IMG/VR virus record: IMGVR_UViG_3300005309_000014
From: a virus
DNA: 5,694 bases
Strand: one strand, 5' to 3'
The notes under the pieces were generated by a model that worked only from the letters and a program-made list of their open reading frames with translations, ran no database searches and was not told the origin of the DNA. A program made the position numbers and the translations under genes. This document shows positions 1 to 5,694 of the stretch, in pieces (positions within the stretch are counted from its first letter, which is position 1; each line of letters begins with the position of its first letter).

Positions 1-283
1 TTTTTTTGGTTTTGCAAATTTATTTTATTTTTTTTTGTTCCTTACCACTTGTTGCTCTGTCCTCCCCCCCACTTAATTCCGTTCCTTCGGTTAGATGTTT
101 TTTTGTCAGGCGTAGCTGACAGGCCACTTTGTGTGTCGGGTTTTTCTTTTAGTCTTTCCTGGTATAGCATTTCCCTTCTTTCTTTTTCGTATTGTTTTCT
201 GCTCCAATTTCTTTTATTGTCTCCGTAACCCAGTCTTTTGTTTTTTAATCTTGCAAAGTTTAATGCTTCGTAGTATTCTGTCT
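1..283. repeat. Terminal redundancy, copy 1 (identical to 5412..5694); wrap-around of a circular genome
   Basis: I aligned 1..283 by eye against 5412..5694 and found every base identical, including the T9 and C7 homopolymers. The offset is 5411 nt. Genes run continuously across the junction. Confidence 0.95.
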
Positions 284-518
284 TTCCATCTTTTATAGAT
301 ATTTCTACACCATCTACCCATCTTGTTTGCTTGTCTAGTTTTTGTAACCAGAGTTGTTCCTTCTCGTCCTCTGTATATATTTTGTTTCTGTAGTATATTG
401 GTAATCCTAGTTTGTGTCCGTTTCTCGATTTGTATGCTTCGTCGGTTTGGTCTGTTTTGTATTTGTTTCGTTCTGCGTTGATTGTTTTCGTGTATCTTTT
501 TCCAATGCCTGGGACTTG
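42..518 (-). CDS. +1-frame continuation of Rep VP4 (conserved C-terminal domain with no start codon of its own). The full-length product would be complement(join(42..509,511..1155)), about 370 aa.
   Basis: My hand translation of the frame opening after the TAA at 519..521 gives QVPGIGKRYTKTINAERNKYKTDQTDEAYKSRNGHKLGLPIYYRNKIYTEDEKEQLWLQKLDKQTRWVDGVEISIKDGKTEYYEALNFARLKNKRLGYGDNKRNW...GGGQSNKW, with the stop at 42..44. As far as I recall, the S-P-G-I-G..Y and LP-x-YY-x-x-K-I-Y-x-x-x-E blocks are the conserved C-terminal signature of microvirus VP4. There is no in-frame ATG near its start, so it can only be expressed as a fusion. Confidence 0.75.
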   Translation of the reverse strand, partial: QVPGIGKRYTKTINAERNKYKTDQTDEAYKSRNGHKLGLPIYYRNKIYTEDEKEQLWLQKLDKQTRWVDGVEISIKDGKTEYYEALNFARLKNKRLGYGDNKRNWSRKQYEKERREMLYQERLKEKPDTQSGLSATPDKKTSNRRNGIKWGGGQSNKW

Positions 519-1155
519 TTAGTATTATTGATTTATACTCTTTGTGTTTTTCGTCCGTTTTGTTAATATACTTTGTTATATATGTTATTGTTTTTTCGTT
601 TACGTATGTTTTATTTCTGTCTTCTTTTTTAGGCCATACGAATCCGTATTTCCAATGTTTTAGCACTTCGTCTATATTTCCGTCTGTCCATATTATTCCG
701 TGCATGTGTATATTTTCCGTTCCTTCGTGTCCTAGTTCTGTTACCAGGTAGTGTTTTACGCTTTTTTTGTTTGCTTTTCTGTATCTTTCTAAGAATCTTC
801 TTGTTGCTAGTGTTGCTATTTGATTATCTAGTTCGTACCCTTTTTGTGTTATTTCCCAAGTTTCGAGTTTTTTATTTTGTTCTTCTGACTCTTTTGTTCT
901 GATACTTTCGATTAATTCTTTTATACTTTCGTTACTGAATGTTAGAGTTATAAAGTATGCTTTTTTGTTTTCTCTTATCTCTTCAAGTAGTCTAACTTGC
1001 CATTCTCTTGCTTTCTTTTTTCTGCATTCCATGCATTTGCCGCAACCTATTGGTACTGCTAGTACTCTTTTATCTGTTGGTATTGGTACAACACCGTTGT
1101 TTTTTTTAGTTTTAGTGTATTTTTTATTTTGTATTAGTTTTGGATATAAACACAT
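214..1155 (-). CDS. Replication initiation protein VP4 (HUH rolling-circle endonuclease), zero-frame ORF of 313 aa. Only residues 1-215 look Rep-like; the tail is out of frame relative to the conserved C-terminal domain.
   Basis: ATG at 1155..1153, 1 nt after the VP2 stop (TAATATG). The N-terminus reads MCLYPK...CGKCMEC. RCR motif 1 is YFITLTF (937..957), the HUH motif is HMH within NIHMHGIIW (700..708), and the double-tyrosine motif YITKY (568..582) matches the phiX174 gpA YxxKY arrangement. After P215 (CCC 511..513) the zero frame becomes K/R/Q/N/T-rich with no recognisable Rep motifs. Confidence 0.9.
   Translation of the reverse strand: MCLYPKLIQNKKYTKTKKNNGVVPIPTDKRVLAVPIGCGKCMECRKKKAREWQVRLLEEIRENKKAYFITLTFSNESIKELIESIRTKESEEQNKKLETWEITQKGYELDNQIATLATRRFLERYRKANKKSVKHYLVTELGHEGTENIHMHGIIWTDGNIDEVLKHWKYGFVWPKKEDRNKTYVNEKTITYITKYINKTDEKHKEYKSIILTSPRHWKKIHENNQRRTKQIQNRPNRRSIQIEKRTQTRITNILQKQNIYRGREGTTLVTKTRQANKMGRWCRNIYKRWKDRILRSIKLCKIKKQKTGLRRQ
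507..513 (-). other. Candidate +1 ribosomal frameshift heptamer CCC AGG C (or the site of a 1-nt insertion)
   Basis: The plus strand reads gcctggg, which is CCC AGG C on the minus strand. The zero frame reads Pro-Arg. Re-pairing at +1 gives CCA (still Pro) followed by GGC, producing ...ILTS-P-GIGKRY. The window allowed for the switch is bounded by the +1-frame stop at 519..521. Confidence 0.35.
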
Positions 1156-5398: not shown

Positions 5399-5433
5399 CA
5401 AATATACATATTTTTTTTGGTTTTGCAAATTTA
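5399..5433 (-). promoter_or_regulatory. Candidate Bacteroidota-type promoter: TAAATTTG, 19-nt spacer, TATATTTG
   Basis: The coding strand from 5433 down to 5399 reads TAAATTTG CAAAACCAAAAAAAATATG TATATTTG. Both octamers fit the Bacteroides -7 consensus TAnnTTTG. The TTTG of the first octamer lies 19 nt upstream of the second, matching the -33 TTTG element. My eye scan found no other TAnnTTTG on the coding strand. The first octamer also appears at 15..22 in repeat copy 1. Confidence 0.4.
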
Positions 5434-5694
5434 TTTTATTTTTTTTTGTTCCTTACCACTTGTTGCTCTGTCCTCCCCCCCACTTAATTCCGTTCCTTCG
5501 GTTAGATGTTTTTTTGTCAGGCGTAGCTGACAGGCCACTTTGTGTGTCGGGTTTTTCTTTTAGTCTTTCCTGGTATAGCATTTCCCTTCTTTCTTTTTCG
5601 TATTGTTTTCTGCTCCAATTTCTTTTATTGTCTCCGTAACCCAGTCTTTTGTTTTTTAATCTTGCAAAGTTTAATGCTTCGTAGTATTCTGTCT
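5412..5694. repeat. Terminal redundancy, copy 2 (identical to 1..283)
   Basis: Same comparison as copy 1. This copy holds a duplicate of the rep 3' region. The +1-frame stop at 42..44 corresponds to 5453..5455, and the zero-frame stop at 214..216 corresponds to 5625..5627. Confidence 0.95.
5453..5694 (-). CDS. Partial duplicate of the rep 3' region, created by the wrap-around; not an independent gene
   Basis: Identical to 42..283. The frame runs off the right edge of the window. Confidence 0.7.
   Translation of the reverse strand, partial: TEYYEALNFARLKNKRLGYGDNKRNWSRKQYEKERREMLYQERLKEKPDTQSGLSATPDKKTSNRRNGIKWGGGQSNKW

Follow-up and report, generated by a model that had tools for sequence, protein, structure and literature searches.

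A microvirus replication initiator gene divided between two reading frames at CCC AGG C, a candidate site of +1 ribosomal frameshifting

In bacteria and phages, programmed +1 frameshifts are uncommon. One of the described sites is CUU_AGG_C of the Ty1 retrotransposon, reportedly the work of Belcourt and Farabaugh in 1990, and another is CUU_UGA_C in the bacterial prfB gene, encoding release factor 2 (RF2). Two proteins from a single HUH replication initiator (rep) locus are known from phiX174 (A/A*), the mastreviruses (Rep/RepA) and the circoviruses (Rep/Rep'), and in the last two groups the isoforms share the N-terminal nuclease domain and take their C-terminus from another frame. As regards bacteria and their phages, CCC is a documented +1 shift codon, including in the Listeria phages PSA, A118 and A500 (CCC_UGA, ACA_CCC), and at pheL of Escherichia coli (CCC_UGA) the combination of CCC with a slow A site gives 2-15% shifting without dedicated signals (PMC5009743). 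Moreover, the UGG isoacceptor of tRNA-Pro is reported to be intrinsically shift-prone (PMC4519876). The present work deals with the rep gene (VP4) of the microvirus in IMG/VR record IMGVR_UViG_3300005309_000014, a stretch of 5,694 nucleotides (nt) which, at its full length, is referred to as the window. This gene is divided between two reading frames at the heptamer CCC AGG C (507..513, minus strand), where a +1 ribosomal frameshift would yield the full-length Rep protein.

The first of the two frames, frame 0, is read on the minus strand from the ATG at 1155 to the stop codon at 216..214 and encodes 313 amino acids (aa), with the HUH rolling-circle motifs I, II and III in order (AYFITLTFS, NIHMHGI and YITKYINK). 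Its codons 1-215, from Met to Pro215 (CCC), occupy 511..1155 (-) and contain the HUH endonuclease domain (PF23343 at residues 68-200, phrog_942 at residues 1-202), while the 98 codons and stop which follow the site (214..510, -) are translated in this open reading frame (ORF) into a basic tail rich in K, R and Q, the C-terminus of the unshifted product. The second frame, +1 relative to the first, is closed by a TAA at 519..521 (-), three codons upstream of CCC, which sets the 5' limit of the shift window. From there it is open for 158 codons up to the TAA at 44..42, reading QVPGIGKRY...LGLPIYYRNKIYTEDEKEQLW...RLGYGD, and its part from GGC (Gly216) onwards, the Rep C-terminal domain of 155 codons and stop (42..509, -), aligns to the C-terminal halves of intact Reps. 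No ATG, GTG or TTG which could serve this domain as a start of its own is found before 170, that is, for 116 codons after the +1-frame stop. Since the conserved ILTS is read in frame 0 and the conserved GIGK in +1, and the TAA lies three codons before CCC, the frame change must fall at the Pro codon, where the heptamer is read as Pro-Arg in frame 0 and as CCA GGC, Pro-Gly, in +1. The sequence CCCAGG has a single occurrence on the coding strand of the genome. The coordinates and sequence statements of the first-pass annotation, which had been made from the letters alone (frame 0 at 1155..214, +1 at 518..42, CCC AGG C at 513..507), all proved correct.

Joining of the frames at Pro215 gives a fused Rep of 370 aa, and the C-terminal elements GIG..Y, LPxYYRNKIY and LGY are contiguous with the nuclease domain solely after a +1 shift at this residue. 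A search with the fused protein returned 3030 protein matches, the best intact Reps (single ORFs of about 320-380 aa) showing 91-100% coverage at 50-62% identity. The fused Rep matches PF23343 (E = 2e-9) and phrog_942 (E = 7.5e-24), and for phrog_942 the frame-0 product scores 69.5 bits and the fused protein 85.9, the aligned span being extended from residues 1-202 to residues 1-336. In an alignment of 51 Reps, all 16 invariant C-terminal columns are kept, and the similarity of the C-terminal part to intact Reps is as predicted from the N-terminal half (residual -0.019, for a between-taxon standard deviation of 0.029). The AlphaFold model of the fused Rep is a single confident unit (mean predicted local distance difference test score, pLDDT, of 84.6; predicted template modelling score, pTM, of 0.81), with block means of 87-96 over residues 211-330; a PDB fold search gave weak matches to the HUH domain alone (E >= 0.03) and none for the C-terminal domain. 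The genome encodes Rep in two frames, and the C-terminal domain shares ancestry with its counterpart in intact Reps and shows no decay. The idea of a split gene, put forward when the locus was first read, is borne out both by the extent to which the fused protein spans intact Reps and by the VP4 C-terminal invariant columns in its +1-frame part.

The split is also a property of the viral population. The 313-aa ORF, identical or with one residue changed, is present in the Joint Genome Institute (JGI) metagenomes 3300005299, 5306, 5307, 5308 and 5311 and in the Logan assemblies SRR6464558 and SRR6464544, the whole set for this virus comprising nine assemblies from at least seven samples and two data sources and pipelines; several of the contigs are concatemers longer than one unit. 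CCC AGG C is invariant in 9/9 assemblies, while 14 substitution sites and the length of one intergenic A-run vary between the unit genomes, differences which identify them as distinct haplotypes of a replicating population. An extra C arising as an artefact, or as an insertion killing a single genome copy, had been the second option of the first-pass annotation, and it is contradicted by this agreement on CCC. Three of the substitutions lie in rep, two of them synonymous and in the N-terminal part, and the third in the overlap and non-synonymous in both frames; because they are so few, the frame under selection is not resolvable from within-lineage data. As to other variation at the locus, codon 14 (rep position 42) has one synonymous site with three alleles (T, C and A) among the nine assemblies, which is unusual given 14 variable sites genome-wide, and the poly-A run just 3' of rep (window about 6 and 5417; unit position 1149) varies in length by one base between assemblies. 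The assembly of JGI 3300005311 carries, downstream of rep (L004:2600-2790), a 177-nt insertion with 6 Ns and an extra ORF call of 59 aa, which is either a scaffolding join or a real variant.

The same heptamer is found at the homologous codon of two other microviruses, here called L043 and L045, whose lineages were discovered by searching with the 313-aa frame-0 ORF, tail included. Their frame-0 proteins run past the junction as ...SSPRHRQG... (P0122, 284 aa, in L043 and L044) and as ...TSPRHRKG... (P0127, 238 aa, in L045-L048), the DNA being AGT CCC AGG CAT AGG in the former and AGC CCC AGG CAT AGG in the latter. In both, a complete C-terminal domain (PGIGKGY...LPxY.RNKIY...LGY) is open in +1, and the same +1-frame TAA stands three codons upstream. 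Each genome was assembled identically from several sequencing runs, two for the L043 type and four for the L045 type. Their fused Reps are 53-57% identical to that of the window virus and 65% identical to each other, capsid identity among the three viruses is 43-45%, and the DNA of L043 and L045 shows no megablast-level similarity. The Reps of L043 and L045 have a long acidic C-terminal extension past the conserved domain (e.g. ...EDLKEDIWDDNDYCPF), whereas that of the window virus ends basic and rich in Gly.

The junction was surveyed at the DNA level in intact relatives drawn from IMG/VR, metagenomes and GTDB, 104 distinct ones in all, none of which is split at the position of residue 215. 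The pattern in this set is AGY-(CCA/GCA/AAA...)-GGN-ATH-GGN, with Pro215 in about a quarter of the relatives, CCA as codon 215 in 21/104, and Gly216 encoded by GGA in 58, GGT in 22, GGG in 16 and GGC in 7. CCA followed by GGC is present in 1/104 intact relatives as against 3/3 split genes read in +1, and the junction of the window virus equals AGT CCA GGC ATT GGA plus one extra base. From the frequencies in these relatives, the chance that two or three independent lineages would match at CCA/GGC is roughly 1e-3 to 1e-4, and it seems, on this comparison, that the heptamer itself is required, beyond its position. Scans of IMG/VR with AGYCCCAGGCATHGGNAARRGNTAY and with a looser pattern retrieved the window genome alone, the 36 other matches being mostly on long contigs not of microvirus size and including no Rep relative by tblastn, and scans of IMG/VR, metagenomes and GTDB with the fused proteins retrieved intact relatives alone. 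Three tblastn matches among GenBank phages, seemingly full-length to the frame-0 ORF, were rejected, as they are intact Reps with off-frame alignments of the tail. A profile of the three frame-0 tails returned nothing from a set of 5.8 billion proteins, the query's own protein included, and is hence uninformative. Interruptions at other places in rep were also seen: L040 (662-1581) and L158 (1501-2435), a single contig each, have Reps split elsewhere, and the Reps P0176, P0133/P0145 and P0155 are truncated or split at other positions, P0176 entering the same off-frame after ...NLNEY.

In a neighbour-joining analysis of 164 Reps, L043 and L045 came out as sisters in 95/100 bootstraps (93/100 with the N-terminal half alone), while the window Rep was grouped with them in 0/100 and was placed among intact Reps. 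If this topology is correct, it implies at least two origins of the split state, or many reversions, the latter being improbable, as hardly any intact relative has CCA GGC or CCC GGC. When the +1-frame C-terminal domains of L043 and L045 are compared, the proportion of synonymous differences (pS) is 0.82, which is saturated, and the proportion of non-synonymous differences (pN) is 0.25, with 40, 28 and 65 differences at the first, second and third codon positions; by this comparison, the +1 frame of the pair is under purifying selection. Their sisterhood and identical heptamer suggest that the split was already present in the common ancestor, in which case the +1 frame would have been translated and selected throughout the divergence of the two lineages. 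The programmed +1 frameshift which had been offered as the first option thereby gains strong comparative support, from the heptamer at the same codon in two divergent genomes, the two or more origins and the purifying selection in +1. Conservation of the heptamer in relatives had been proposed as a check: it is kept in the two divergent genomes, and more than 100 other relatives are uninterrupted.

The reading which we favour, with a probability of roughly 0.6, is that a real and selectively maintained +1 ribosomal frameshift at CCC AGG C yields full-length Rep. Peptidyl-tRNA-Pro on the P-site CCC would slip one base forward and re-pair perfectly on CCA, so that the A site would hold GGC (Gly216) in place of AGG, the family-wide sequence ...ILTS-P-GIGK... 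would be restored and the 370-aa full-length Rep would be completed. Ribosomes which do not shift would make the 313-aa protein, with the whole HUH nuclease domain and a basic out-of-frame tail of 98 aa. The arrangement would have been kept by selection, being common to sister lineages diverged to synonymous saturation and of separate origin in the window virus. We infer, as parts of this proposal, that the event is ribosomal, that the slipping tRNA is tRNA-Pro, that AGG is slow enough or GGC fast enough, and that the ratio of the two products matters. Transcriptional slippage was considered and rejected, since a run of three Cs is generally too short for it.

Among the described systems, the Ty1 site resembles the one proposed here in being a seven-base site without a structure requirement, with an identical AGG C, at which re-pairing of the P-site tRNA in +1 takes place with AGG still unread, GGC being decoded next. 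In contrast, Ty1 is eukaryotic, its slipping tRNA is tRNA-Leu(UAG) on CUU, and the rarity of its tRNA-Arg(CCU) has been shown experimentally, whereas rarity of AGG is unsupported in two of the three phages here. The 'Ty1-like' label which had been given to the microvirus heptamer is apt for its last four bases and not for its P-site codon, CCC, on which the slipping tRNA would be tRNA-Pro as at the Listeria phage sites. Likewise, the suggestion of a pause at a hungry AGG is at best partly supported: AGG makes up 6 of the 68 Arg codons in the window virus (9%; AGA, 57), but 22/81 in L043 and 17/73 in L045 (23-27%). The prfB site shares bacterial P-site +1 slippage, but it relies on a stop codon and on an upstream Shine-Dalgarno-like stimulator, neither of which is present at the microvirus site. 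A further likeness is to the Listeria phages PSA, A118 and A500 (tsh CCC_UGA; PSA cps ACA_CCC), in which peptidyl-tRNA-Pro on a rare CCC slips +1 and the C-terminus is altered (PMC5009743); CCC is also a minor Pro codon in the window virus (5 of 54). Nevertheless, those are structural genes of tailed double-stranded DNA phages of Firmicutes, in which the pause is provided by a stop codon or a downstream pseudoknot, while the microvirus site lies in the replication initiator gene of a single-stranded DNA (ssDNA) phage, with the sense codon AGG in the A site and no detectable structure.

Several observations weigh against a maintained frameshift. RNA folding around the site in the three genomes gave z-scores from -1.13 to +1.15, that is, no stimulatory structure; no Shine-Dalgarno-like sequence was found upstream of the heptamer; an Rfam scan around the site returned no family and a tRNA scan no phage tRNA; and AGG is not avoided among the Arg codons of L043 or L045. 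A stimulator in cis is not obligatory for the P-site slippage class of +1 events. On the comparative side, the site is known from three genomes, while over 100 relatives read at the DNA level are uninterrupted, and the short C-terminal half alone recovers the sisterhood of L043 and L045 in just 26/100 bootstraps. Sampling has to be taken into account as well: L043 and L045 come from one run series, the relatives in the tree were retrieved with the window protein as query, and the discovery of L043 and L045 through homology to the frame-0 tail biases what could be found.

Of the competing explanations, the one deserving most attention is a tolerated, 'compensatory' indel, a recurrent one-base insertion in CCA GGC which would be rescued by leaky slippage at CCC-A, bring no benefit and eventually revert. 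All three cases show the exact sequence expected from one base inserted in Pro-Gly, nearly all relatives are intact and a stimulator was not found; small amounts of Rep, being catalytic, may suffice. Compensatory frameshifting of indels is, in addition, a recognised class, and in the G-run mutants of herpes simplex virus (HSV) thymidine kinase low-level slippage at a one-base indel rescues, in much the same way, the essential gene which carries it (PMC5009743). The HSV mutants are, however, recent and within-host, while the microvirus split is common to lineages at synonymous saturation, through which the site was apparently kept in the L043/L045 pair. Moreover, a single deletion would revert the insertion, but in at least seven samples every haplotype has the site, and, with the precursor CCA GGC in so few intact relatives (1/104), three independent recent insertions would be very unlikely without strong filtering. 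We regard a tolerated indel as unlikely, albeit with a weight which has to be reckoned with.

A defective or reduced gene, with the 313-aa protein as sole product and a C-terminal domain that is either not needed, provided by a co-infecting helper or a relic of recent date, is improbable. It is true that the frame-0 product has all three catalytic motifs and that within-lineage diversity is too low for a direct selection test, the one C-terminal substitution being non-synonymous in both frames; but the 16 positions invariant across 51 Reps are retained, the C-terminal domain has no excess divergence, L043 and L045 show purifying selection in +1, and every sample of three different viruses has the split genome as its consensus. 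Very improbable is the separate translation of the C-terminal domain from a non-canonical internal start, to act in trans with the N-terminal protein. A TTG does follow the +1-frame stop of L045 by nine codons, and codon 36 of L043 is an ATG; however, that ATG would cut off the conserved GIG..Y segment, the window gene lacks any such codon along the 116-codon stretch already described, and the starts are not conserved among the three genomes while the heptamer is. A spurious extra C from sequencing or assembly is hardly credible in view of the concordance of nine assemblies, two pipelines and at least seven samples, the recurrence of the heptamer in two unrelated genome sequences and the fact that a three-C run is not an error-prone homopolymer, even though singleton frameshifted Reps exist at other positions and curators of metagenome-assembled genomes (MAGs) have treated such splits as assembly errors, patching them with Ns (PMC9239249).

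With regard to the unshifted product, the frame-0 tails of the three split genes measure 98, 88 and 42 codons, whereas in the equivalent frame of the 104 intact relatives the median length is 8 and the longest run 42. Synonymous permutation gave P = 0.009 for the 98-codon tail of the window virus, and 0.0014 and 0.065 for the others. This signal of selection on the tail has to be downgraded, because discovery was tail-based, because the capsid gene of the window virus has off-frame runs of 95 and 89 codons, and because of the open frame in P0042, the intact neighbour-joining sister of the window Rep. Composition accounts for much of the tail length. The A/A*-like role which the first-pass annotation had suggested for the 313-aa product is at most possible on this evidence, as is a RepA-like one. 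In P0042 (TCA CCG GGC; L171:2392 onward) the equivalent frame (-1) is open for 107 codons and 7% of the codons end in T; the run may have been left by a split ancestor, may be an overlapping ORF or may simply follow from very low T content at the third codon position.

The window consists of a circular microvirus genome of 5411 nt with a terminal redundancy of 283 nt, in which 1..283 equals 5412..5694 exactly and the 3' end of rep is repeated (the ORF at 42..170 is that at 5453..5581). All genes lie on the minus strand, which is strongly A-rich and T-poor, and the microvirus context is given by a 666-aa product with a weak Phage_F match and by nucleotide matches to microvirus capsid genes. Seven consecutive Gs, at about 60..70 (-) in the weakly conserved 3' tail of rep (IKWGGGQ), form a homopolymer which could slip by itself. 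Relatives of the Rep come from a 73-kb scaffold of Dysgonomonas and from MAGs of Bacteroides and Bacteroidales. The Rep on that scaffold (L088; Dysgonomonas sp. 521, NZ_QVMO01000010.1, 61735-68658) is 50% identical to the fused protein, and its position inside a bacterial scaffold points to an integrated microvirus and to Bacteroidales as hosts of the group. The host of the window virus is, judging from these relatives, probably in the Bacteroidales, which are largely without Shine-Dalgarno pairing.

In the literature searched, no account was found of frameshifting in a microvirus gene or in a phage HUH Rep. The wider proposal, that a structure-free programmed CCC_AGG_C +1 shift in Rep, fixing the ratio of a nuclease-only, basic-tailed isoform to full-length Rep, has evolved on at least two occasions in microviruses of Bacteroidales, is advanced here tentatively, as possible though rather doubtful. 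The two-protein HUH loci of phiX174, mastreviruses and circoviruses differ from it in using internal initiation or splicing rather than frameshifting, and the 313-aa product here is a prediction from sequence. A large microvirus survey has corrected frameshift-split MAG genes by inserting Ns (PMC9239249); such patching in the pipelines for microvirus MAGs would erase real recoding events and mis-annotate Rep. If the wider proposal were true, this would be the first recoding signal described in Microviridae, in hosts without Shine-Dalgarno-assisted translation, and the short, structure-free and recurrent site would offer a compact test case of tRNA-Pro slippage in Bacteroidota. Furthermore, it would be a prokaryotic translational counterpart to the spliced Rep/RepA and Rep/Rep' of eukaryotic ssDNA viruses, and ssDNA phages would, like those viruses, diversify Rep by a change of frame.

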